A stretch of 56,369 nt of DNA, filler included, from Sphacelaria rigidula (Eukaryota): the NCBI GenBank assembly GCA_964200075.2. It is 7 parts of 7 records of this genome, joined end to end, with 100 filler letters (N's around TTAATTAATTAA, not from the genome) between each part and the next. Parts side by side here need not be neighbours in the genome. Positions count along the whole stretch, not along the records: positions 48,403 to 56,369 come from CAXNAA020012813.1; 6 more parts are not named here. One strand, written 5' to 3'. The notes beneath the pieces are model-generated. The model saw only the letters and a program-made list of their open reading frames with translations, made no database searches and was not told where the DNA came from. Positions within the stretch are counted from its first letter, which is position 1; the number at the start of each line of letters is the position of its first letter. The position numbers and the translations under genes were made by a program. Positions 4,560 to 56,294 of the stretch are shown here, one piece after another.

Positions 4560-5790
4560 ATGTTCTTTACGCCATATTGGTATTTGAATTTCCCAATGTT
4601 TCTGTTTTCAAGCAGATGCATTGCCAATTCTGCTCTCCATGCTGTACTACTCGTCGTTTTCGAGCATCCAAGTATTTCTTAGCTGCTGGCATCTGAATTG
4701 TTTCCAACTTCTTCATCAACTTCACGTTCTCCTCCCATACTTCTCCTGCACATTCCAGCTTTGGTACAATAACCTTCTCCAGGAAATATCTCTCAATCCT
4801 AGTATCTACGTGCGAGTCTCTGAGTATCACGTCCATCCTTGCTATCTGTGCCTTATCCTTACTAATTTTTCATGTGTTCATCCCAAGAACAGTTTCTCGA
4901 GATCTTTGTCCCAAGGTATGTATTCTGGTCTACGACGGGAAGTTCCTCTTCTCCCCACTTTCATTTAAACTCCACCTAGTTTTATCTTCGTTACATACAA
5001 GTACAGCGCATTTGTTCGCGTTCGCTGCCATTCTCCAAACCCTAGTGTAGTCTATCGCCTTCTCTATGTGCTTCTGCAATCCTTCTGGTGTTTATGATAC
5101 CCCCACAAAATCACCCGCGAACATTAATCCTGATACAATATCTTCACCCACGTTGACTCCTTGCTTTGCTGCTTGTATTGCTATTATCAGGTCATTAACT
5201 CATACTTTGAATAGAGTGGATGATAACGTACATCCTCTTGCAACTCCTTGTAAACCATCAAAATATACAGATATTTCCCCGTCTAGCATCATAGCACTTT
5301 GGCACATTCTGTCATCTTCTTCACCACTCTTCACATCGTTCCTCTTATCTCAGTTTCCCACAACTTTTTCCACAACCCATTTCTCCATACTGTGTCGTAG
5401 GCATTTCTTTTCTAGCATCGTTCCTACTCTACAGTATCATTCAGAATCTTACAGAATGTTTTCCCTACCGTGCTCAGTAGCGTTATCTCCCGATATTTCT
5501 CTGGGTCAGCCTTATCGTCTTTCTTGCAAAGGTTGACGACTACTCCTTCTCTCCACCTCTTGGGTGTGTACTCGTTTTCCTAGACCCAGTTGTACAGCAT
5601 CACCGTCATGGTACTTGTCGCCTTTCCCCCGTACTTGAGAAATTAATCCACTATTTCGTCTGCCCCGGCTGCCTTTCTGTTATTAAGTTTAGCTACACAC
5701 TCCCTTACCTCATCTCTGGTAAACTCTCTCTGCAGTTCTTTCAAGACACTATCCTCCTGCTTTTGACGCCTCTACAAATGCTCCTGCTCA
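4560..5790 (-). pseudogene. LINE reverse transcriptase domain (disrupted; catalytic FADD reads FAGD)
   Basis: Manual minus-strand translation of 5000-5260; ORF 4567..4836 resembles the post-RT region. Confidence 0.85.
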
Positions 5791-6326
5791 CGCGTTGATT
5801 TCTTTTTCGAATTTCCTATCGAACTCCGTGCTTGTCTTTGGTGTTCCTAGTTTCCGGTAATGCTCGACTAGCACTGCTCTCTTTTCCTTCGAACTGCTGA
5901 CCATTATACCGTTCTGTGCCCGCAGTGTAGCTATCCCCTTGTCCATCCTTCCTGCCTGCTTTCCCGTTATCCCTTTCACCCCTGCCCACATTTGTGTCAT
6001 CCCGCCGTCGGAATTGTCGTTTGGTTTTTTCACCACGTCTTGCCCCTTTCCCTCCTTTATCTGCTGTACCATATTTTTTACTTCCTTCCGAGCTTTAGTA
6101 TACTCCTCCCATCCTGCCGTAGTTTTACTCGATATTCATCTCGAGTGGGCCCCTCTCCACACTCTGATAGACTCTTTCACCTCCTCATCCAATCATTCTA
6201 CTGCTCTGTTGCATACTGTTAGTTTCTCCCCTATGACTTTACTCGCTGTGTTCTTGACCAACTGCTCCCGTCCTTCTATAATCTTCGCTCCTGCCCGATC
6301 CCTTTCCATCTCGGTATCAAGTGTAT

Positions 6327-7240
6327 CTACCCTTTCCAACAGCTCGGAAATTCCAGTGCATTTCTGGCCATCTCTTCTTGGAACTCTCGCTGTATTTCTT
6401 CCATTTCTAGTTTATTTCTTCTCCATTTGTACCACTTCTGACCCCGCCTATTTCTTTCAGCTCTCGCCTGTTGGCTTTCTGCGCATATTAAGCAATGATC
6501 TGTAGTTGCCACGTCTTCTGCGCATACTTGTACTTCGATTTCCTTACTATTTCCATGCTCTACCGCTATGTAGCCAAGAACGGAGCGTTCTCTCCCGTCT
6601 TTGCATTTTCTAGTCCATGGCCATTGCGCCTCTGGCTTCTGTGCTCTATTGTTCATCGTCTTCATCTCGTCATTGTCAAGGACCTTGAGCATTTCAAACC
6701 CATTCGTGTTCTTACGTTCCCCGTATTGCCCCATGACACCATCCGGTTGACCTGTTTTTTCAACCCTTGTATTTAAATCTTCCGCTAGAATTGCTTCTCC
6801 TTGCCTTCTATACTTATGTACATCAGCTGCTATCTCTAAACACCTCCGCTGTATATCGTTCACCCTACTCTTCGATTCTGGAGGCATGTAGATGTTCCCT
6901 ACGAACAAGTATTTCGCTCCCCGTCTTCTTGGTACGATAACCTTATCCATATGCTTTCGTCGAACTTCGTGTTATAGATCACTTCTATGATGTCAAACAG
7001 GTTTTCTTTGACTAAAAACCCTACGCCCCCCGTCCCCCTGCTCTTGGACTTGAGTCCCTTCCGCTTTCTCTCTATCCATGCGTACTCTTCAACTTTGCAT
7101 CCTATTTTTGCCTCCTCTTTCTCCCATGACTCTTGGATCCCTACTATATCTAGGTCGCAGTTTCGTACTTATTCGGCTATCTCTATTATTTTGCGCCCGT
7201 CTGTAGCAAATCCACTCACGTTCCACGATCCTATTCTCAA
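6327..7240 (-). pseudogene. LINE apurinic-type endonuclease domain (disrupted)
   Basis: ORF 6327..6950 plus upstream WNV/QE motifs in adjacent broken frames. Confidence 0.85.
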
Positions 7241-7967
7241 CTTCCTTTCCGAATCATTATCGGCTCTCCTGTTGTCTACTGTTCTCTCTCCGTCGTTTCT
7301 ATTTCTATTTTCCCTTGCCCGTTTTTTCGTGCTGTTTCTGGGTTGATCTTTGTCTATTTGCTTCGGGCTGCAATGTCCCCTCCCCTTCCCCTTCCGGGCA
7401 CCTACCTATCTTTTCCTGCTCCTCCTTTGCTCCATTCACCCCCGGACTATGTCTTAGGTTTGTTGTTCCATGAGCAACGGATACTCTGCATCCAGCCTTC
7501 CTGACCCATGCCGACACCTTGCTTGTCTCTATCCTTTCCTACTCCTTGCTTGTCTCTATCCTTTCCCACTCCTTGCTCGCTCCCTGTTTTAGTGTGACTC
7601 AGAAGTGTTCTCCCTCCCTTCCTACCTTTCCTCTTGCCAAAGAGTATAGTCCAACTTCATCGCATTTCTTTTTTGACTATATTCTCGTCATATCCTTGCG
7701 GACTCCAAATATCAACTAGTACGTTACCCGTCCAATCTTTACCTCTCGATTCACCCTTCCTCACCGTCTCTCTCTTAATCTCTTTCGATAGAATCTCCAG
7801 CCTGTTCGTTGAAGGTATTGCGGTGGGATGTAGTCAACGTACTGGGATATCCCAATCCTAGTACTCGTTGGGGGTCTGGTTTCTTTCAGTTCTTCTGCTG
7901 GCTCACCGACACTAAGGAATGCCTCCGACACGGGCTTGTAGCCTGAAGCCAAGTTCAACATCTTTGA

Positions 7968-8067
7968 NNNNNNNNNNNNNNNNNNNNNNNNNNNNNNNNN
8001 NNNNNNNNNNNTTAATTAATTAANNNNNNNNNNNNNNNNNNNNNNNNNNNNNNNNNNNNNNNNNNNN
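7968..8067. other. Artificial 100-bp linker (44N-TTAATTAATTAA-44N)
   Basis: Six-frame stop linker inside Ns; recurs every 8067 bp. Confidence 0.98.
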
Positions 8068-8504
8068 CGCAGATTTGGGGTCTACCAAGGCCTCACTTTG
8101 TTCAAAGAATGTATGTACCGCCCTTGCCCGAGGGTTCTCGGTGTGCGTTGGGTTGGATCAACCCAACTAGCCTCCTGGCATTCCAGCGTATCGTAAGCAT
8201 GGACGAAAAGCTACGCAGTGGCATGCAGCATATGGGGAACAACAACGGAAGAAACGGTAGGGTTCTCTATATGAATTTTGGATCCATGTCGTTCTCTTCC
8301 GATGACGTTGGTCATATTTCACCCGACGAGCATGAATAAGCCCCAAAAGTCGATCTGCTCGTGTCTTTTCGTGATTTTGGTCGGTGACATTTTTTTGCCC
8401 AGTTTGGGGGGTCAGGCGCGCCCATAACTGTACCCTGCAAGCGGCTCCCTGATGCTGGCGAGTTGCATTTTCGACAGAAGAACAGATATGAAGTAGGTGC
8501 AGTA

Positions 8505-8861
8505 TGTTCGTAGGATGGCCTGGGGTAGTCAGTAAGATACACCTGTCAGGATAAGGTGCAATAGTCTAGTGACATACTCCAGAGTACCTGTTTGAGTTCC
8601 GGGTACTACGCGGGATGACTTTATATTGCGACGTTAGTGACTGGACATACGTGAGTGGTGCTTGTCGCATCTTGAGACCTTGACCCCTACTGGGGTCACT
8701 CTCCCTTCTTCCCTCTTCATGAACAAAGTTTTATATACATTTCTACCTCATCTTGATCGGCAGTCAACCGTGTCCATTGATCGACTGTCCCAATCGTGTC
8801 CATTGATCGACTATCTAAGCCGAGTCTGCACCCCATCCTCTCACGGGGTCACGAAGCTACA
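8505..8861 (+). repeat. 5' LTR (357 bp)
   Basis: TG...CA direct repeat of 12089-12419, with 26 extra bp from a local duplication of CGTGTCCATTGATCGACT. Confidence 0.92.
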
Positions 8862-9249
8862 AACAGTCTAGAGTTCCTACCCAACTTGGGAGCTTTGTGG
8901 CCGAGGTGAACTATGGCAGACTGGAGCACCACGGAGGGATAGTCGGCCGTCGTGGGAGACACATCATCTCCAACGGACATGCTGGAAGTCAAGGAAAATG
9001 TAGCCAGTTTGCAAGACTCGATGGCGGATATCACCGAGTAGCTGGCGGAGCTCAAGACGATGATGGTGTCCCAGTTAGTGCGTGGGACATATGTCCACTG
9101 GCCCCAGAGCGGCAGCGGGCGCGGAGGGGGAGTCAGGCGACGGGAGGCACACCGTCGCCGGTGCCGGAACAGGGAGGGTCCGGTCACCAAACGGTGAAGA
9201 GATTGTATCAGGCCCTCTCCGAGGATCCACGGACGATGGATCAGTCCAA

Positions 9250-10240
9250 CTAAGTATGAACGAGGAGTCCCCGGCTTCCTACCCTCATCTAGGCGTGGAG
9301 AGTTATTTTCGTGTTGATGAAAAATTCGATGGTCGAGAGGGAAATTGGCCGTTGTTTCGTGATGATTACCTGACACTAGTCAGTGCAGCAGGTTTTATGA
9401 GTGCCTTACGAGACACGCGAATATTCAGGCTCACGATGCTAGTACCGAGGATTTAGTTAACCAGGGATTAGCACCGAAGGAAATACAGATGTACAGACTC
9501 TTGTGGGCGGGACTGGGGAGCTCGATAAAGGGTGAGCATGTAAAGCAAACCGTTTACTCCTGTAAGGGAACGCCTGTGGCGTGGCGAGCGTTAGAGGAGT
9601 ATTGTGCGCCGTTGACTGGTGGTGAACAGATCTCGTTGGTTGGGAATTTTTTTCCATATGACACAGGAAACTGGCCTGGACCCCCGCGAATATTGGCAGG
9701 AATATCAGAACGTTATTGTGTCACTGGAAACGGCTCTAGAACAACAGATACCAAAGAGATTAGTGTTCGCGCGCTTCCTGCAAGGACTCACAGCTGATTA
9801 TGATCACCAAAAACAACACCTTCTCTCGCAGAAAGGCTTGGACGTAGAAGAAATTGTTGAGGGTGTTGAGGACTAGGTTCGGGATGGTAAGAGACAACAA
9901 GGGGAAGGGAAGCCACGCGTTGGTGTCAGTTGGAAAGAGTAACAGTGGCAAAGAAAGTCGGAAGAGGAAATTACGAGGGACCTGGGGAAGTACGGGGGAT
10001 TCAAAAACAGGCGGGCGTGAAAACGGTCCTGTGAAGGAGAAGCGATGTTGGATTTGCCGGAAGCAAACAACAAACTTCGCGCGTGACTGTCCGGAACGAC
10101 ATTGCATGAGACGCAGACAAAAGGGACATTCGTTTCAGAATTGTAATACAGGAGAAGACAAAGATACAGCGATGGCAGCAGGGTCGTCGAGTAGTAGCGA
10201 TTCTTCAGTATGCTCAGCAGCGGACGGAGAAGCCTTTTGA
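9250..10240 (+). pseudogene. Copia-type gag remnant (UBN2/Retrotran_gag-like plus degenerate zinc knuckles)
   Basis: KFDGR..W..F, AWRALEEY, LDPREY...FLQGLTADYD, CWICRK...DC and KGHSFQNC across frameshifted ORFs 9082, 9489, 9619 and 9854. Confidence 0.72.
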
Positions 10241-10410
10241 AAATGATGGCATGAAACCTATGCATGACTCAAATACCCCTTTGATGTTCGATGTTTCGAG
10301 TGTTCGTGGCCACCATGCCGATAGCGATTCATGTACCCAAGGAAAGGTTGATGCCCAGGTGCATCAAGATGTTGGACATCTCTGGACGATGCTGAGACCA
10401 TATTTTTGGT

Positions 10411-11135
10411 TTGGTGGTGAGGAACATACAAGCGGTATGGGCGAGTCCGGCGATGGCGGTGCCGAACAGAGATACCTTCCGTTTGGTTAGTGACTACCAA
10501 GCGGTGAACGCGCTGATAGAGCAGTCTCGGGGGGTAATGCCGAGTCAGGAGGACATGCGGGAGTTACTGGGAGCGCAATGCTTTAGCAAATTGGACTTGC
10601 TCCAGGGGTATTGGCAAATGCCTCTAGCACCGGACGCACAAGAGTTCTCCACGATCACCACACCAGAAGGTCTGTTTACGCCAACTCGTGTTCCTCAGGG
10701 TGTGCTGAATGCTGCATCCTATTTTCAAGATGTGATGACTGATCTTTTGCAAGCATTGGACTGCAAAGTGTGGGTCGATGATGTTTTTTATTTCGCCGAT
10801 TCAGAAGAAGCGTTGCTGACGTTGTTAGACGAGATTCTCGGACGTTTGGAAAGTGTTGATCTGTTCGTCGCAGCTCACAAGTGCACGTTTTTTTTCTCGA
10901 GAAATAGTTTGGTGTGGCAAGGTGTACTCGCACGGAACTGGGTCTCATGATCCCGTACGCATTCAAGGGCTGAGTACAATGCGACGTCTTCAAAATGCAA
11001 GCGAGCTGATGCAGTTTCTACAGGCGGTCAATTGGTTGCGAACTTCACTACCTCGCATGGCAGAAGTAGTAGCGCCGCTTCGTGCGTTTTTAGGACAACT
11101 GATGGCAGGGGCGTCGCGTAGGACCAAGCGGGCTC
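10411..11135 (+). pseudogene. Ty3/Gypsy reverse transcriptase fragment
   Basis: WASPAMAVP, FRLVSDY, FSKLDLLQGYWQ, RVPQG, WVDD; continues after a frameshift into LMQFLQAVNWLR. Confidence 0.93.
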
Positions 11136-11139
11136 ACAG

Positions 11140-11415
11140 TTGCACATCACTGCGGAATTCAAAGATGTTTTTCAGCATTCGTATGCTCAGGGGGAGTGTC
11201 GAGTGAATGCTTTGGTGCACGTCGCAGAGGACGATGATGGACATGTCATAGTTTTGGTCGATTGGGATGGCTTCGATTCTGAAGAACGCACGTGGGAGTC
11301 TCTTCGGAAAATTCATTCTTCGGCGCCTGAATTCGTTGTCAAGGAATTGCGTAAAGTGCGGTTGACTCGGGCGTTGACCAGTAAATTAGCGTCGGAGTAT
11401 GGTAGCTCTTTGTGA
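11140..11415 (+). pseudogene. Gypsy C-terminal chromodomain (RNase H and integrase deleted)
   Basis: VLVDWDGFDSEERTWESL is a chromodomain signature; lies directly after the RT thumb. Confidence 0.85.
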
Positions 11416-11497
11416 TTTGGCGCATGCAAAATTCGGCTTGGTGATTTTTGTTGGTTGTCAAGCTCGTTCGTTTGTCTTGAACTCGCTTTGGGGGTGC

Positions 11498-11810
11498 TGT
11501 AGCCCAAAATGGTGCCAAGCCGTTGCGTTTAACGTGTAGGATACTGGATAATAATTATGTGACAGGGTACACTGTGGATGATGACCCTCACCGTGTAGCC
11601 TCTGATGTGTAGCCAGTGGGCTGCTGTTGCCTACTTCGTGAATGGAAACTCCAAGAGAAGTTCTTATCGAGCTTGGCCAGTGAATTCTGGAGAAGTCCCT
11701 CTCTGAATAGCCCTCTTGTCCAGATCGTCTGGCAGACGCTATAGAGCATGGGCTAGTACAGTTGCAGAATTTGACTTGCGTTTTGCATGGATTGACCATC
11801 AGGAGCTACA
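11498..11810 (+). repeat. Probable 3' LTR of the nested Gypsy element (313 bp)
   Basis: Terminal inverted hexamers TGTAGC...GCTACA, preceded by a G-rich tract; 11530-11760 is homologous to 24367-24585. Confidence 0.7.
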
Positions 11811-12088
11811 GTGTGGTGAACACACAGCTCATGCATCCCTGTTTTTTGTCTTGGTGTGAAAAGACAGATGCCGATGTATTTGGTTCTTGGCTGGACCTAT
11901 AGTCGTTGGAACAAGTGACGGAGTTCCGGGATATTACGGCGGCTTTGCGGTTGCTGATGAAATCCATTTGTTTATAGGATACACGTGTTGAATGCGCCGT
12001 AAGCGGAAGAGTTCTTTTTTGGTGGATAGCTCTGTTCACGGAGTGTGGTCCTTGAATCTTACCATTTGACACCCAGTTAATGGGGGGG

Positions 12089-24599: not shown

Positions 24600-25050
24600 T
24601 GCCGGACCCAACACTCCCATACCCACTCCCACACCTCATATTATGGGAAGCATACACTGCTTCGAGGAGAAGAAAAACTGCTTCAGAACGCGGAAGCACA
24701 AACTGCTTCTGCGTGCTAGCGATCAACGAAGAAGCACAAATTGCTTCGGCGTCCTAGCAAATCGAAGGGAGGAAGCAGGGGGGTACAACGTTTCGGAGCC
24801 ACAGACAGCTCTACGGACGACAACCGCCAGACATTCGGAATTGACCGCGCCCTATGGACCTCAGCATCAAATAAGGAGGGGGGGTTGCCGTGGCACGCGG
24901 GAGTGCTGCAGGGAGCGGAGAGGTTCATGACCTCATGGCACAGAAATGAAGCGGAGGCCAGCCGACTGCGTGCAATTAGACTGGAGATCAACGAAGCTCA
25001 AATAGCGCAGCAATGACGACAGTCCAGAGGAGAGGATGGTGGGGGGTGAA
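24600..25050 (+). pseudogene. C-terminal fragment of an RTE-type LINE ORF
   Basis: FGIDRALWTSASNKEGGLPWHAGVLQGAERFMTSW parallels WVTATKNMGKWHIGVEKGAGEFEGTW of the 54.8-kb RTE. Confidence 0.6.
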
Positions 25051-26600: not shown

Positions 26601-27800
26601 CTATGTGAGTCCGGCAGGCGGGTACTTTGGCATGTCGCTTGTATCATGCGGGCTCGTGCAGGGTTTGCATCTGTGCACGAAGACGCGGGGTTTGGTATCC
26701 TTGCCCTGGAAGTCGCGAGGCAGGTCGAGATAAAGCAGTTTGTCATCAACGGGTTTATCATCCGGTGATGATGGCGATGGTCCGACTGTGAGGATCTTGA
26801 ACGGTCCCGTCCAATTGAGGGAACATTTTGGCTTCAAAATGTTTTCTTTGGCTGCCTTGCTGGGGCCTTGGCGGATGGTCGACAAACTCTTGTAGATCCA
26901 AACCCAATCACCAACTTTCCACTTGGGGCGTTTGTGCAAGAGGTTGTAGAGAGCAGTGTTGAATCTCTCTAGGCACGAAGCGTTGATAGGGTGTTGCTTT
27001 CGCACGAGAATAAACGCTTTGCGTTGTCGTGAATACGCTAGCTCGTGATAGGATATCTGATTCTGATCCAATCCTTGGTCGCCATCGAACGTGTGTCGCT
27101 CAAACACGGTGATGGGCAGCCGAGGGTAACGTCCAGCATGGAGTTCGTTCGGGGAAAGGCCTGTGGCGGCGTTGACCGAGTTGTTGTAGGACAACATGAT
27201 GTGCGAGAGATGGAGGTCCTGGTCATTTTGGTGCTTATTGACAACCATAGAGAACATCTGGGCCATGGTGTGATTTACTCTTTCGGTACCACCGTTACCG
27301 CACGGGTGATAGGCGCTCGTGGCAATTTTGCGGAGGGCCAGGAGCTTGTAAAGCTCATCAGAGAGATCTGAGCAAAGTTGCTGACCATTATCTGAAAGGA
27401 GTCGCTTCGGGCAACCGTAGTGCTTAGTGTAGTCGTGGACGAATATGTCGGCCGTTCCGGCGGCAGTAAAATCCGCAGCGGTCATCGCGTACATGGACGC
27501 GTGGCGGCTGAAGCGGCCAGTGAAGAATAGAATAAGATGTAGGTGTTGCCGCGACCTGTGGTCGGTAGAGGGCCAAAGTAGTAGTCAAAGGACACGAGGT
27601 GGCCTGGCGCGTTGAGGAGTCCCATGGAGATGACGGGCCAGCGAACTGTCTGCCGTGAAGTCTTTCGGGCTTGGCATTTGAAGCATTGCCGAATCCACAG
27701 GCGGGTAGAAATTTCTATGCCAATCCACCAGTAGAAGCGTTCTAAGAGCGCTAGGGTGCGGGTGACGCCAAGGTAACATGACAAGTCTGTGTGACAGCCT
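26601..27800 (-). pseudogene. Gypsy integrase (frameshifted)
   Basis: ORFs 27482..27925 and 26601..27494. Confidence 0.92.
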
Positions 27801-28976
27801 TTCATGACCCAGGGGCGCATTAACAATGGGACATATATGCGCGTTGGTTCGTCATCGAGTAGTCGTGCTTGGCGTCCCGTGGTTGAGACGGAAATCGCGC
27901 CCGTCAAAGGCGTGGGGCGACGCACGCGTAGTTGTACACATTCACCCGTAGTAAAAAGGGTGCCTACACGAGTTCGTGTACATCAGAGATGTCTGGTGGG
28001 GGCAGTGTGCCAACGGGGGCCAGAAGGGCGGATGGACAAGGGACTGGACAGTCAAGTTGTAAGTGCCAGATGGCTGCGCGACATAGTGGTTCCGCGTTCT
28101 GTTCGCGAGCCCAATCGCGGTGAGAGTGACTGGCGAGAAACTCGCGTAGTTGACCTTCCGCTGGCGAGCCGACCAAACATGGTGGGGTAGGCAGCGGGGG
28201 AATAGGCGACGGGGCAGAAACGCCGACGTCGATATCTGCCCCTGGAGCAGGAGCTGAGTCGTCAGCTCCATGCTCGGGAGCGGTAGATGTTGATGGCACC
28301 GTTACGGGCGGCGGGGCTGTATCAGTGCGCGGCGAAGATTGTCCGCGGCGCGTCGGGCACGTTGCAAGAGGTTTCGCGGAGCGTTGCGTGCTGGTCCGTG
28401 GGACCGGTGCTGCGTGGCTCGTGGAATTTGCAGGTGTAAGAGGTGGCGGTGGGGCACTCGGAGGGGTGGTGCGGGCGGCAGACCGAGAGTGCGTGTTGTC
28501 GGAGTTCAAGTAGGTGACCGAAGGTGTCTCCGTGAAGAACTCCGCGCGAGTACCGAAAGTGCGGAACTCGACAAAATTAGAGGTAGTACGCGCTAATCCA
28601 CCCAAGACGGCGTCATATGGTAGAGGGCGAGGCCCTCACATATGCATATCAGTTTCTGGGCACTGAAGGTCGAGGGTGTAAACGGGCGTTGAAAACCGTC
28701 TAATCGGGTGAATGCCAGGTTCATCGGGTTCCGTTAAACGGCAAGCCGGGATGGAATCTGCGGCCGTAGGCGGCAGGGGTAGTCGAGAAAAAAGGTCAGC
28801 GTTTCCGTTGGTTTTGCCTGGACGGTGCTTAATGGAATACAGGTATGCTGTTCGAAACTCCAACCATACTTGTACGCGCGGGTTGTGTTCACCAACCTTG
28901 GTGAGTTGTTCGAGTGCTTCATGATCTGTATAAATCTCGAAGGGCACGTGAAACAGATATTATCGAAGGCGCTTAA

Positions 28977-49331: not shown

Positions 49332-49937
49332 CTATCGCTTCCAATTTCGGAGGCCCTGCTTGAAGCCCTCTAGAGCCCCACCACCCCGCCGGCCCCCGCC
49401 CTTCCTCGAGATCGCCTGCGGTCGATGAGACTTCATCCCGACATCACTGCGATGAACCTCTTTCCAGCACCCGGCGCAAAACAACTCCGCCTCGTCCGCG
49501 TCGTTGTCCTCTTCACACTGACGACATCGGACAACAGCATCCTCCGAGCAAAGGCAACACCACAGGTCCGTCTCATCTCCGCCACCCTTGCCATCATCGA
49601 ATCCCCTCTTCTCTTTAGTTCCTCTTGTTTCCTCCACCTGCTCCGTCTTCTCACCACCAGTGGCAGCACCATCGCCGTCACGGCGTTGCCCCGTAAGGCC
49701 TAAGCGCGCTTCGTCCAAGGCTTGCTGTGCAATGAGTCGTGCAGCAGCATCGTCATCTTGAATGGGGTGGCTTGTAGCGCCCGCAGCTCCATGTCCGTAT
49801 CCGGTGGGGCGATTAAGTACGGGTTTGGCCGTCGGAGCGGCGGGGAGCCAAAGCCCATCATGGTCCTCATCGGATGGCTTAGTGGGAGGTTGTTGCGTGA
49901 TAATGCCATGCCCTTCCAGACGCACTTGGTCAGTCAC
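49332..49937 (-). CDS. Last exon of a protein with a ZFYVE19/ANCHR-like C-terminal B-box zinc finger
   Basis: CCAG/ acceptor, 201 open codons to TAG; WCCLCSEDAVVRCRQC...LFCAGCWKEVH...H matches the WCCICNEDA..RC..C...LFC..C..E.H pattern. Confidence 0.85.
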   Translation of the reverse strand: MTDQVRLEGHGIITQQPPTKPSDEDHDGLWLPAAPTAKPVLNRPTGYGHGAAGATSHPIQDDDAAARLIAQQALDEARLGLTGQRRDGDGAATGGEKTEQVEETRGTKEKRGFDDGKGGGDETDLWCCLCSEDAVVRCRQCEEDNDADEAELFCAGCWKEVHRSDVGMKSHRPQAISRKGGGRRGGGALEGFKQGLRNWKR

Positions 49938-50456
49938 CTGGCGAGTTGTGAGCCGGCATGGTGGCGGCGGAGTGCATTTACGAAAATACCAGTGAAGCGA
50001 CCACTTTTGAGCGGCGCATGGGCCAAGGCATAGGACACTTTTCTAGTACATTGGAAAGTCTGTGCCTTATTACAAAAAGGGCGACCGGGGAAGATACAAC
50101 ATCGGTTGGGCGGGGCACATGTCCCATGTCTACATATTCTACTGTCGAGATCCGGAATTTGCAAAACCTGATGCAAGCAGTACATCAAAGGCAAATAGTA
50201 GTAACGAAGCTTGTTCAACAGAACACACGGCCGACTAGGCGCTGCACATACGCCACTCGGTGTAACAACGCGTCTCATCAACATAGCAGCGCAATTGACC
50301 ATGCACGTCAAAAAAGGCACTTGTATCTTCAGTGGTACGATGCAGCTGGCGATGAGTGGTGCGCGATACACTGTTTGTACACTGCCCTCACAGTGGAACG
50401 ATCTGAGGAGCTAGCTACACGCCCACACACACTCACAAAACTCTTTACACACGCAC

Positions 50457-51528: not shown

Positions 51529-51933
51529 CAACGTGATATGTTGCCAAGAGTGCGCTATTCGTACGCTCAGTACCTTCGCTTGATTTGACCACCTCTTCCG
51601 CGTGGACAATGTACAAAAGAGGAATACTTCCTCTTTCCCTCCCCGATAAGGCATACGCAAAATGAGGGCTGAGAGGCGACTGAGTTAGTATATTACAGGC
51701 CTCCCACGTCACTCGGCACGTGTAAGGTCACACTCCTTTTACGTCGAACCCTATGCTCATTACAGTGCAAACCTTCCCTTCTCCCCGACCGCCACCCGTC
51801 TGGGGTTGGTTGTAACGGGGTAGGCTAACCCCGTCGACAGCACAACCAGTAAGTAGGGGAGGATAAATTGACCTACTGACTTGCCTGCGTGCCGTGTCAG
51901 TGGTGATGCAACTCGCAGTCTAGGTAGTGGGTC

Positions 51934-53418
51934 ATGTCGACGGTGCTAACCTCTAGGCTCAATCCTGCAGATTCGGAGTTCTACCCTAGAATGGGGACCA
52001 AATTGAACCCCGCAGCTGCAGCGTTTTACCCGGCGTTGAGACACCGTCACGGAAAGCATTTTGATGGAGATGAGGCACGTATGAGTAAGTATCAGATTCG
52101 GCGGACTGGAGATAGCGGCCTACGCGAGATGGGGAAGCTGCACCCTCCCCGCGAGATCAACAAGCAAAGCAAGTACCGTGATACACGTGCCAAATAAATA
52201 TGGGAACAGAAAAAACAGCTCGCCCGTAAAATTAGGAGGCGGAACAGACCAAGAAGGAGAGCAGAGCAAAGAGAAAGACGCGTGAATATAGAGAAGGCTA
52301 AAGCTAGGTCGCGTAGTGGGGAGCTCAAAGTGGCTACCTATAACGTCCGTACACTGTCCCTAACGGGAAAGAACGGAGCTGGCCATGCTGAAGTGGCCCT
52401 GCAAAAATGTCAGGCAGTCGGATGTGACGTCATCGAGCTACAAGAAACGAGGAGACCAGGTCGATCCGAATTTGTGTGTCCGGATATCATATATTTTGCT
52501 GCGGGGGGGGGAGCTGGTCAATATGGGGTTGGGTTGGCGGTCAAGAAGTCGATCATCAGCAAGGCGACGTGGACTCAGGCACTCCTCAGCGAACGCCTCA
52601 CGTCGATTACTTTCAAGCTAGCGGGTAAATCAAATGCTACTACGTTTGTAGTTGCATACGCCTCGACAGACACTCCACAGTCGAGAGAAGAGAGAGATGT
52701 GTTCTGGACTGAGTTACACGGCATTGTGAACCGTATCCCCCACAAACATCACCTGTTCATTTCAATGGACGCTAACGCGAGGGCTGAAGTACGGACGGGC
52801 GAGGAAGAACGTAAAATTGTAGGAGTATACGGCCGAGACTCCCGATCCAACGACAGTAACGGCACATCTCTAATGCAATTTGCAGGCGACAACAGGCTTT
52901 TCCTGGTCAACACGTTATTTCCCACCCCCAAGGGAAACACCTCGCGTACGTTCAGCGGTGTTGCGAATCGCCCCGCGGAGAAAAAACGCACTGACTACAT
53001 CATCACACGGCAATACCACCGCAGGCTTGTTCGTGATGTCACCGTCCACCTTCAACCCCCCAACTCGCCGGACTCTGACCACAACATCGTGTGCGCCTCA
53101 GTGCGGCTCCTTGGTCGCTTCGCACACGACGGAACTAGACGAATTCCAATTGGGCGTACACCGATCGACAGAGAGGCAAAAGTATCTGACCCCGACAGAC
53201 GTGAGCAGCTCACCCAGCTCATCATCAGCGAGCTCAAACAGAGTAAACCTGGTGAAACAGTCAGTTCACTGGCTACGAACTTTGCGGACGTACTCTTGAG
53301 TGCCGCTGAAAAGGTTGTACCCCGTCTGACCCGAAAGCCACGTGTAACGGGGTGGTTCGAGGATGCTGAAATCAGAACGGATTTTAAACAGGCCTGGATG
53401 GAGAGGGAAAGAGCGTGA
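51934..53418 (+). pseudogene. RTE ORF N-terminal half: two PAM2-like motifs, basic linker, APE endonuclease
   Basis: ORFs 51934..52197 and 52282..53418 share a frame (offset 348 nt) separated by a single TAA. Confidence 0.82.
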
Positions 53419-53479
53419 TCAACGGTGAGACTGGGGTCATCTCGAGATAAACTCGCATGGCACATACTGCTGGCCCTGG

Positions 53480-55001
53480 CACATACTGCTAAAGTTCTCC
53501 TCAAAATCGTAGCCAACAAGCTCGGTAATTTTTACGAGGAAACAGATGTCTTCCCGGAAGAGTAGTGTGGATTCAGGCGCCAAAGATCTACAATAGACAT
53601 GATGTTCGTGGTACGCCGACTCCAGGAGTTGGGACGGGCGAGCAACGTCCCAATAAACATGTATTATATCGATCTGCAGAAAGCCTACGATTCTGTAGAC
53701 CGCACGCTCCTGTGGGAAGTGCTTGCTCGGTTCGGGTTCCCGTCGCGAATGATCACGACCATCCCTATGTTTCACGACGGCATGCGAGCCCGGGTACAGC
53801 TAGATAGTGGCGAACTATCAGCGTGGTTCCACGTCCGCCAGGGACTCAGACAAGGTTGCGTTTCTTCTCCGGAGCTGGCTCGGTGGAAGTGATCGTTCAG
53901 CGATTTGCTGGGGATCCACTTATCGTCTCAGACTCGGTCTTTCTAGATGACGCGCCAAAAGGTGACGGTGGTGAACCCGTGGTAAATACACCGCTCAAAA
54001 AGGTGCGACGCGCGGTGTGGGCAATGCTTTATGCGGACGACGCCGGCATAGCCTCGAAGACCGCAGAAGGCCTTGCTCGAATGATGGCCGTGATGGTCAT
54101 GACCTGCCAAGAGTTCAGCCTGATGGTCTCCGAGAGAAAGACAGAGTCCATGCGCTTTTGGTCAGTACCCAGTCCCACGGAGGCCGCCCTGAATATCAAA
54201 GCTGCCGGTCAACCGTATAAGCAGACGGGGAGGTTCATCAATCTTGGAGCTATCAACGCGGATGCGAAAATGTCCATCGAAATCAACCGCCGTATCAGCG
54301 CGGCGTGGGCGCGTATCCCAAGATATAGCTCCCAACTCTACGACCGACCCAACGCCGAGCTATCCTTGAAAGTTCGACTGCTTTAAGCGGGGGTGGTACA
54401 AGCTCTGTTGTATGGATGAGCTACGTGGATGCTACGTTCTGTCGACTTCGACAGTCTGCGACCCATCCATCACAAGCTCTTGCTGCGAGTGGTTGGATTC
54501 CGCAGGAAAGATCGAAATGGCTAGAAGACTCTTTCGTACAGAGCGGTGCTCGAGATGACCAACTGCGAACGTATCGAGAGGACTATCCGCAAACGTCAAC
54601 TCTGCTTCGCGTGGGCCCTTGTCCGGCAAAAGGACACACGCATTCCCGAGCGTGTCATGAACGGCCGGCTTTCCACACGAGAACCTAAGGAGGCCGGCCG
54701 CCCCCCCAAGCAAGGAGAGGATACCCCAAAGGAGAACCTACGTGCGCTAGAGGCTGTCCCGCACAAAGGAGCCCGACGGAAGTGGTTCGTCTACGGTGTA
54801 GAATTGAACGATGCATGCGATTGGGTCACTGCGACGAAGAACATGGGCAAATGGCATATTGGAGTCGAAAAAGGAGCGGGAGAGTTTGAGGGCACGTGGC
54901 GACGCGCGGACAAACGAGAATCAGACCGCCGTCACAAGCAAGAGGCTGCTGCGTCGAGGGCCGCCAATCAAAGAATACTGTCTGCTCATATCGATTGTTA
55001 A
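53480..55001 (+). pseudogene. RTE reverse transcriptase and C-terminal region (stops and frameshifts)
   Basis: ORFs 53599, 53823 and 54546. Confidence 0.9.
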
Positions 55002-56294
55002 TTATGTCTTCAGTTGGTGGCTCTGCAGTGCCCATTGGTGTGTGTCTGTATCTACTCTGCTGCTCTGAATCCCTTGGGCTTTTTCCTTTCTTTTTTTTTC
55101 TTTCCGGTTTTTTCTCGTTTGCTTTTTTCCGCTCCTTTTTTTTTTTGTTTTCAGGTCGGCCATCTCTTTCTGCGCTTTGCTTTTGTTGGATTATTATTTT
55201 TTCCCCCGTCTTCGTCTACTATGTCGTTCTGTACGATTTTTTTCTGTTCCTTCTCTTCTTGAGCAAGTGTTTCAGTTTTGCCTTTCTTGGGTACGTCTGT
55301 CATGCAACCACAGCTGGACCCGTGGGCGGTCAGTTAAAGTGTGCCAATCAATCCATCAATCCGTGATGTTCGATCCCCTCTTTTTCTAGCCTACTTTCGA
55401 CGGCAAGCTGCAACAGCGGACGATACAGTGCATGCCCATATCCAGCTTGTAATTTTTCAACCGAAGCGTGCATAGATGACAGAGTAAGTACGCCTCGTAA
55501 AAACGTTGAACAGAGCGCTGAGGTTGCGGCTAGATTCAGGGATGAAAGGTAAAGATGGTGAAACTCGGTCCAGCGATCAAGCTCACGGGAGGGGGTAATT
55601 GGGTTTGCTAGTAGCAGTGCCAATCGCTCAGACCCGCGCCAAGTATGTTCCCGTTTGGATCTCGATTGCAAAAAAGCGTCACTTCAACATGTTGCAGGCC
55701 ATTGATCGTTACTGTCTTTGAAAACAAGGGCTAATGATCACCGCTACGATGTCTGCCGCATGCCCAATTTACCCGGAGACGGACAAGAAGAGATACGAGG
55801 ACGGACAAAAACCTGTGATAGACAGGCGAAACAGAACAATTCTTCGATACATAGTGAAGACAAAGGGGTTTATCCCCAGGAGCCTGATCAGAGGGGGTGC
55901 ACAGTGGCTTCAAGCGGCTGTCCGTTTTGTCGATCACTACTGCCGTGTTTCGTGCTGCTCGTATCTTTCAACGAGCGGTTGTGGAAGAACCCAAGAGGCT
56001 TCAGGGGACACGTGAGGCGTCTAGACTGGCGGGTAGCATCCTAGGCGCACGTGCACAGCTCTCTCTCCAGACAATGATTAGTGTACCCCATTCCGACCAA
56101 AGTTCGGGTGAGTGTACCCCCTCTTGTTTTACCGCAATTTCCATCTTCGACCTCCCCCGGAAGACGTGAAGAATCTCACACCAGAGAATAGAGACAAAAA
56201 AATGCAAATAACGTGGGGCATAGACACCACAAGCATCACTGGGCATTTTTTCGCGGTCAGTCTTTACATTATGAAGACATGCCATTGTACATGA

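Follow-up and report, generated by a model that had tools for sequence, protein, structure and literature searches.

How the protein of a long interspersed nuclear element (LINE) finds its own RNA, a behavior known as cis-preference, is a long-standing question. For human L1, a direct contact between ORF2p and PABPC1 was proposed only in 2025 (PMC7617806). A retrotransposon copy in Sphacelaria rigidula (assembly GCA_964200075.2) raises the question in another form: does the N terminus of its open reading frame (ORF) carry motifs of the PAM2 type, which dock on the MLLE domain of PABP, the poly(A)-binding protein, and could these tie the nascent protein to the mRNA that encodes it? The copy lies on the + strand of a 56,369-nt stretch of DNA joined from seven parts of this genome (the window), within the part taken from CAXNAA020012813.1.

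Two PAM2-like motifs open the ORF of a decayed retrotransposon

The window copy is a decayed, internally deleted non-long terminal repeat (non-LTR) retrotransposon of RTE type, with an APE endonuclease domain and a reverse transcriptase (RT) domain in a single ORF. Translation of the + strand from the ATG at 51934 gives MSTVLTSRLNPADSEFYPRMGTKLNPAAAAFYPALRHRHGKH..., and in this frame we find both of the tandem PAM2-like motifs that an earlier note, made from the sequence alone, had placed at the start of the ORF (motifs 1 and 2; Table 1). The note had also described the motifs as in frame with the APE domain apart from one TAA, and this is what we observe: the TAA is codon 88 (52195–52197), and beyond it the frame stays open as far as 53418, a stop-to-stop length of 406 codons. 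Motif 2 has all five key residues (Leu3, Asn4, Ala7, Phe/Trp10, and Pro12) at consensus spacing. Motif 1 has Asp at position 7 in the window copy, where the family majority has Ala.

Translated in all six frames, the 56 kb window contains two matches to the pattern LNP....F.P, both of them these motifs; 100 base shuffles give a mean of 0.03 matches and a maximum of 1. The strict pattern LNP.A..F.P occurs once in the six frames, at motif 2, versus 0 in 100 shuffles. A loose ELM-like pattern yields 1.8 matches per shuffled window. The Pfam PAM2 model (PF07145), which the earlier note had named as a check, recovers two stretches in the 87-aa ORF (E = 0.0036), but the score of 17.3 bits lies below the curated 20-bit cut-off.

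The motifs lie inside the element, and the family majority restores the consensus

We aligned Logan contigs of four public runs (X1, X2, X4, and X6) to positions 51600–55300 at 80% likeness. X1 and X4 derive from one sample, and the four runs represent at most three samples from three studies. X1, X2, and X4 are of DNA type; X6 is only presumed to be of RNA type, so no reading of expression is drawn from it. Summed contig depth, which is not equivalent to copy number, is 20–55 over 51600–51723 in X1, X2, and X4 and 0 in X6. From 51724 (bin 51724–51847) it is 5,383–11,885 in X1, X2, and X4 and 56 in X6, and it climbs further toward the 3′ end of the element. L001 and L002, two metagenome copies of a related family, diverge upstream of a CTCCTCCCCGGCC box that forms their common 5′ end, and a similar box is present in the window at about 51777. 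The depth jump and this box together place the 5′ end of the element near 51775 and the motifs about 160–260 nt inside it. The depth step at bin 51724–51847 and the 5′ box both set the motif region within the element boundary, as the earlier note had assumed.

The contigs also bear on the departures of the two motifs from consensus. At 51971, an A>C change converts codon 13 from Asp to Ala (GAT to GCT) at a depth of 4,896/4,976 in X1, 5,273/5,338 in X2, 11,068/11,376 in X4, and 229.5/229.5 in X6. The family-majority motif 1 is SRLNPAASEFYP, a full consensus match. Nearly all contigs encode Ala and the Asp is private to the window copy, in agreement with the earlier note, which took it for a departure of a decayed copy. 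The note had explained Ala in place of Glu in motif 2 in the same way, which is not supported: at position 9 the relatives differ, with E, V, A, or P, and Ala is the residue in P0221 too.

The codon at 52195 reads as sense elsewhere in the family, as Gly in P0221 and as Glu in P0277, a reading taken from these two copies only and not from the run contigs. The majority substitutions S79G, T84R, and W90S, one of which sits behind the TAA, approach the residues of relatives in three of three cases for P0277 and in two of three for P0221. Since the site is sense in both proteins and the majority substitutions run toward the relatives, the frame once extended unbroken from the motifs to the endonuclease. 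P0221, which is 78% identical over the leader, bears the source label 'unnamed protein product [Sphacelaria rigidula]'.

The element family is abundant in a brown-alga-like organism. Within the window itself, a blastn search for other copies gives the self-match only. By tblastn, a 5′-truncated fragment resembling the C terminus of the same RTE group is seen at 24774–24971 (+), and weak RT likeness at 5203–5750 (−).

The motif is kept in relatives at the extreme N terminus

A protein search anchored mainly on the endonuclease gave 170 matches at E ≤ 0.001 among 8,000 scored candidates, and we examined the best 120 of the 170. The best protein matches form a family at about 55% identity. The N terminus is kept in 21 of the best 120; 19 of these have the strict motif LNPxAxxFxP and begin M-G-F-K-LNP[DG]A[VLA][ED]F[FS]P, and the other two differ by a single substitution (F to L; P to S). 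The remaining 99 are called from downstream starts and are uninformative on the motif. A search among longer proteins returned six, only one with a complete N terminus: P0124, a protein of 1,205 aa with intact APE and RT domains and 42% identity, which starts MGSVLNPNAMVFVP. A metagenome scan provided L001, a contig of 4,579 nt whose intact ORF of 1,244 aa starts MASVGLVAIQSVLNPDAEVFVPKT and carries the motif as ...SVLNPDAEVFVP, as well as L002, the second copy of this family. Both intact full-length ORFs that keep their N terminus (P0124 and L001) carry the motif.

A profile search with alignment A2 against 1.84 billion cluster representatives gave 6,830 matches at E ≤ 0.001, the best 150 of which were examined. 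Eight of these 150 reach profile positions 1–5, and all eight have L-[NDV]-P-x-[AV]-x-x-[FWHL]-x-P; the strict motif is present in three of them (P0129, P0251, and P0253). Across 278 proteins, 24 strict motifs fall within the N-terminal 70 residues and none within the other 75,723 residues. In the nine-sequence alignment A1, the positions L24, N25, P26, A28, F31, and P33 are invariant. The conservation in other copies on which the proposal of the earlier note depended thus extends to relatives at 40–57% identity.

No relatives were found in the viral contig collection, and a weak 58-residue match in a bacterial metagenome-assembled genome (MAG), obtained in the genome contig search, was set aside. 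A PDB sequence search with the 40-aa N terminus gave only one irrelevant match (E = 0.47), and an ESM Atlas search with the N terminus gave no usable match.

The likeness of the motifs is at the protein level

In the subfamily of the window copy the motif is present twice, with units 15 codons apart. The N termini of P0277 (MEAVQTSRLNPAAELYPRLGTKLNPAAAVFCP) and P0148 (MLTALNSRLDPAAAVFCPVWEPELVPAAAEFYP) likewise have two units and an upstream Met, and both double motifs are imperfect, unit 1 of P0277 being one residue short. Between motif 1 and motif 2, 8, 8, and 4 of 10 bases are alike at codon positions 1, 2, and 3, respectively. The corresponding values for the two motifs against the L001 motif are 8/5/3 and 8/6/3, and Leu, Asn, Pro, and Phe of the motifs are encoded by different synonymous codons. 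Because codon positions 1 and 2 agree and position 3 does not, the likeness is at the protein level, and conservation of the stretch at the nucleotide level is rejected by the same comparison. Considered with the relatives, these comparisons make conservation of the motif, and selection on it as protein, well supported. The duplication, if it is one, would be old and kept at the amino acid level. Protein alignments match the single motif of relatives to unit 2 of the window, and the DNA alignment with L001 matches it to unit 1.

Some RTEs have a separate short ORF1. We rejected such an ORF as the carrier of the motif, which in L001 and P0124 is in one ORF with APE and RT.

The motif sits in a predicted disordered leader

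AlphaFold2 (AF2) modeling of the L002 ORF (569 aa; mean pLDDT 59.9; alignment of 11 rows) leaves residues 1–77 below a pLDDT of 50 and without secondary structure. A helix at residues 76–123 corresponds to the Arg/Lys-rich part and is followed by the endonuclease fold. The motif falls among the first 25 residues, where a basic leader that is predicted to be disordered precedes the endonuclease. PAM2 short linear motifs are usually set in such disordered leaders.

Other boxes of the leader are also kept across lineages: H-x-x-G-K directly after the motif, V-S-K-x-Q-I-R, G-x-L-[HN]-P, and the basic box A-R-K-x-R-R-R-x-R, which AF2 draws as the long helix. A nuclear localization signal or RNA binding are guesses at the role of these boxes.

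The MLLE domain of PABP is a candidate partner

The PAM2 consensus is given as LNxxAxEFxP, with the core also written LNxxAxx[F/W], in PMC7356810. The same source describes Leu and Phe/Trp as the residues anchored in MLLE pockets, Asn as stabilizing the turn, and Ala as necessarily small; a form with Trp in place of Phe, PAM2w, occurs in LARP4/LARP4B. The conserved motif positions of the element (L, N, A, and F/W) coincide with the MLLE anchor positions so described. From this correspondence of sequence, the motif is likely to bind the MLLE domain of PABP.

A stand-in MLLE domain was found by scanning viral contigs with a back-translated MLLE signature, which returned 14 loci. Pfam MLLE scores above its cut-off in 11 of the 13 giant-virus-MAG loci tested (among L004–L017). 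In ESMFold2 complex prediction, residues 1–45 of the L002 ORF and the MLLE of L013 score 0.38 (runs 0.39, 0.37, and 0.38), the best of three controls scoring 0.01, which is weak support. With an unrelated protein in place of the peptide or the MLLE, the scores are 0.01 and 0.00. At least 75% of contacts are common to the runs, and the pLDDT of the partner is 52 or higher. In calibration, 51 of 78 solved complexes and 2 of 108 mismatched pairs came up to the mark; those that did so with a score of 0.60 or under were only 5 of the 78 solved complexes and all four passing mismatches (of 180). The family alignments did not enter the prediction and, because PAM2-MLLE structures are already solved, the pass may show likeness rather than binding.

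The two MLLE loci that we inspected, L013:181–1104(−) and L005:7–1047(+), do not have the layout of a PABP. One encodes a protein of 307 aa with an N-terminal MLLE, and the other one of at least 346 aa in which the MLLE is C-terminal and a Cys/His-rich stretch is also present. Such viral MLLE proteins could serve as baits for PAM2 proteins.

A model for co-translational capture of PABP, and its rivals

We infer both the partner, PABP through its MLLE, and the purpose of the motif from the features described above. Lying at the N terminus, the motif would emerge from the ribosome before the rest of the protein and may then dock on the MLLE of the host's cytoplasmic PABP, so that the nascent endonuclease-RT would be tied to PABP on the very mRNA under translation. 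On the sequence evidence, we hold this tethering model to be evenly balanced between right and wrong. We hypothesize that the tether would promote ribonucleoprotein (RNP) assembly and cis-preference in an element that lacks ORF1, which would be a functional parallel to the PIE-PABPC1 contact of human L1 ORF2p. The broader proposal, that an RTE clade evolved PAM2 mimicry at its first residues, doubled in one subfamily, for co-translational capture of PABP via MLLE, is put forward more tentatively and may well be wrong.

A number of observations count against tethering. The window is below the Pfam PAM2 gathering threshold not only with 87 aa (17.3 bits) but also with 60 aa (18.7 bits), every whole protein scanned is below threshold (11.7–17.5 bits), and P0148, P0221, P0227, and P0231 have no Pfam PAM2 match. 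The only piece to pass is the N-terminal 60 aa of L001 (22.7 bits, E = 6.8e-5, above 20). The consensus Glu9 is not conserved, being E, V, A, or P among lineages. Five of the eight N-terminal representatives have a substitution at one key position: F to L in P0201, F to H in P0221, A to V in P0227, F to W in P0231, and, in P0148, a changed Asn in each of its two motifs. The motif is absent from three more distant full-length relatives (P0206, P0216, and P0267; E 1e-42 to 1e-34) and is thus not a feature of APE-RT elements at large. P0121, the largest cluster with its 2,648 members, shows no motif in the part covered, which begins at a downstream start (MSKQQ...). As to the complex prediction, its score is weak, its MLLE comes from a non-PABP protein on a giant-virus MAG contig and not from the host, and peptides and disordered chains are outside the calibration of the test.

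The 3′ end is the weak point of the proposed mechanism. L001 ends in ...ACAATACAATACAA, a short tandem repeat rather than poly(A), at the end of its contig, and supplement 1 of PMC12477816 lists RTE-1 and RTE-2 of Ectocarpus as 'single EN-RT ORF; (CAA)n 3′'. Copies of the element thus appear, from their sequence, to end in short tandem repeats and not in poly(A), and this tells against a tether to the tail, which needs a polyadenylated transcript, a point that the earlier note had not taken up.

The same 3′ end makes a role in tail priming less obvious, and in this respect suits an alternative in which the motif binds the MLLE of PABP for some purpose other than cis-tethering. It might compete with host PAM2 proteins, for example deadenylase adaptors such as PAN3, Tob, or GW182, or PAIP2-like repressors, and so keep the element mRNA stable and translated, or it might allow nuclear entry via shuttling PABP. 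Protection from deadenylation has also been raised for the L1-PABPC1 contact in PMC7617806, and this alternative draws on the same sequence evidence as tethering, from which no evidence here separates it. However, a single protein per mRNA would be a weak competitor of plentiful host factors if it did not act in cis, and action in cis leads back to the tethering model; we consider the alternative unlikely. Rather unlikely, in our judgment, is a functional N-terminal motif with a partner other than PABP, such as another MLLE protein (for example, a HECT E3 ligase), an import factor, or the APE or RT domain in an intramolecular contact. The mostly sub-threshold Pfam scores, the variable position 9, and the weak complex prediction are in keeping with such a partner, as is the occurrence of MLLE outside PABPs (11 of 13 giant-virus-MAG loci, with L013 and L005 lacking the PABP layout). 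Yet the invariant positions coincide with the MLLE anchors, the F-to-W variant is that of PAM2w, the leader is predicted to be disordered, and unrelated replacements score 0.01 and 0.00.

An explanation by chance, or by a nucleotide-level reason for keeping the stretch (5′ untranslated region [UTR], internal promoter, or RNA structure), is already disfavored, and we regard it as highly improbable. The shortness of the motif speaks for chance, as does the frequency of a loose ELM-like pattern, at 1.8 matches per shuffled window. LINE 5′ ends often hold promoters, and the 5′ UTR of the window copy folds somewhat better than shuffles (z −2.2). Against this stand the absence of the strict pattern from 100 shuffles and its confinement to N termini (24 occurrences versus 0 in 75,723 other residues). 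The motif is, moreover, kept at 40–57% identity despite differing flanks, the identity is at codon positions 1 and 2 and not 3, and the family majority restores the consensus Ala.

Architecture of the element and other features of the window

The coordinates of the element in the window are collected in Table 1. An in-frame TAG at 51925 lies three codons before the ATG at 51934. P0148 (MLTALNSRLDP...) and P0277 (MEAVQTSRLNP...) start at a Met aligned with Met1 of the window, which is not surely an ATG in these proteins, as database ORF callers may read GTG or TTG as Met. Met20 is an invariant column of alignment A1, and P0221, of the window's subfamily, is called from it. The Arg/Lys-rich stretch downstream of the motifs spans about 52207–52317.

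Table 1. Features of the retrotransposon copy, in window coordinates
Feature	Position	Strand	Details
5′ UTR	51775..51933	+	5′ end approximate, ± about 15 nt; from depth jump, 5′ box, and upstream TAG
ATG start codon of the subfamily's single ORF	51934..51936	+	P0148 and P0277 begin at the aligned Met
PAM2-like motif 1, SRLNPADSEFYP	51952..51987	+	Residues 7–18
Internal ATG (Met20)	51991..51993	+	In protein alignments, matches the start Met in P0124 and in the ~55% family
PAM2-like motif 2, TKLNPAAAAFYP	51997..52032	+	Residues 22–33; also Pfam's best PAM2 stretch
Basic leader, motifs to endonuclease	52033..52332	+	Conserved boxes HxxGK, SKxQIR, GxL[HN]P, and ARKxRRRxR; TAA at 52195–52197
APE domain	52333..53082	+	Pfam Exo_endo_phos, 28.3 bits (cut-off 24.5), E = 1.8e-6; residues 134–383 when the TAA is read through
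RT domain remnants, two frames, stop-interrupted	53458..54155	+	Pfam RVT_1
Internal deletion site	53477..53547	+	~167 codons of the L001 ORF (residues 549–715) without counterpart
ORF C-terminal part	54525..55001	+	Stop codon 54999–55001
3′ UTR	55002..55362	+	Variable C/T-rich tract at about 55060–55290; no poly(A); tentative end (ATCAATCC)x2 at 55347–55362

The RT remnants match RVT_1 with E = 7.7e-12 in the frame of 53431 (residues 10–149) and E = 4.4e-4 in the frame of 53430 (residues 186–242), and tblastn with the L001 ORF gives matches at 53476–53877 and 53862–54950. The codons missing from the window copy fall between endonuclease and RT when it is compared by tblastn with the intact L001: L001 residues 13–548 align to 52003–53547 and residues 716–849 to 53476–53877, and loose contig ends occur at 53477. 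The 3′ end in the window is tentative, with contig depth still high to at least 55300. Other copies have long T runs in the C/T-rich tract of the 3′ UTR (55060–55300; loose contig ends at 55188 and 55207), and a GCGACCACGG-like box after this tract is common to the 3′ UTRs of the window copy and L001.

The intact L001 ORF comprises Exo_endo_phos at residues 130–389 and RVT_1 at residues 700–975; it is a single ORF without ORF1, preceded by only about 170 nt of 5′ UTR, and the window copy has the same domain order. The RTE label rests on this architecture, which it fits, and on the Ectocarpus annotation. Runs of (CAA)n occur upstream of the L002 element (L002:60–125, 455–480, and 700–720) and resemble short-repeat tails of other RTE-type insertions, of the kind given for Ectocarpus RTE-1 and RTE-2.

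A 5′-terminal box (CTCCCCG.CC...GGGGT.GG) is common to the window (about 51775–51915) and to L001:165–310, from families that are ~40% identical in protein. In both 5′ UTRs, base pairing is predicted between the pyrimidine-rich 5′ end and a stretch rich in purines some 80–100 nt downstream. Relative to shuffles, the folding of the 5′ UTR has a z score of −2.2 for the window and −0.5 for L001; neither the 3′ ends nor the L001 5′ UTR fold better as RNA than shuffles do.

Transposon remains are plentiful elsewhere in the window as well, among them an RT ORF at 10396–10950 (+; RVT_1, E = 4.1e-20) and an LTR-type integrase zinc-binding domain at 27482–27982 (−; E = 1.5e-11). Just upstream of the element, an ORF at 49332–50042 (−) encodes a zinc-binding domain of the ANCHR-like B-box type (Pfam E = 2.8e-8) and may be an exon of a host gene.

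Relation to known systems

PAM2 motifs are carried in hosts by PAIP1/2, ataxin-2, eRF3, Tob, PAN3, and GW182, and two PAM2 motifs in one protein are also found in eRF3 and Tob. The motif of the element shares with these the spacing, the residues Leu3, Asn4, Ala7, Phe or Trp10, and Pro12, and a disordered setting, predicted in the present case. It differs in its carrier, a retrotransposon endonuclease-RT polyprotein with the motif at the extreme N terminus, and in having an unconserved Glu9 and mostly sub-threshold Pfam scores.

In human L1, the PIE of ORF2p (residues 272–297) is predicted to bind RRM1 of PABPC1, and co-translational cis-preference is proposed (PMC7617806). Both systems are LINE endonuclease-RT proteins with a PABP-contact element near the N-terminal half that aids the RNP, both contact and role being predictions for the element described here. 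In contrast, the PIE lies in the linker after the endonuclease domain and is predicted to contact RRM1 rather than MLLE, and L1 has ORF1 and a poly(A) 3′ end, whereas this element has no ORF1 and appears to have no poly(A) 3′ end. Also comparable are RTE-1_Ec32 and RTE-2_Ec32 of Ectocarpus, brown-alga LINEs of 4,584 and 4,037 bp described as 'single EN-RT ORF' with a (CAA)n 3′ end in PMC12477816. The L001 element resembles them by description only, with a length of at least about 4.4 kb and an apparent short-repeat end.

PABP is not mentioned in the text of that Ectocarpus transposon paper (PMC12477816), nor are PAM2 or PABP in four of its supplements. By title or abstract, we found no PAM2 motif in a transposon-encoded protein in the full-text literature, a scope that leaves subscription journals and Repbase notes outside, and full-text literature likewise gave nothing that pairs a non-LTR retrotransposon with MLLE.

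The idea can be tested cheaply, since it calls for no more than an MLLE domain, a peptide of 12 residues, and mutants at Leu and Phe. If it is true, transposons would join the carriers of PAM2, and the element would represent a second, independent route to PABP capture beside the PIE-RRM1 contact of L1 ORF2p, in an unrelated LINE clade without ORF1 and through a different interface. It would also explain how LINEs that have neither ORF1 nor a poly(A) 3′ end build RNPs on their own RNA.

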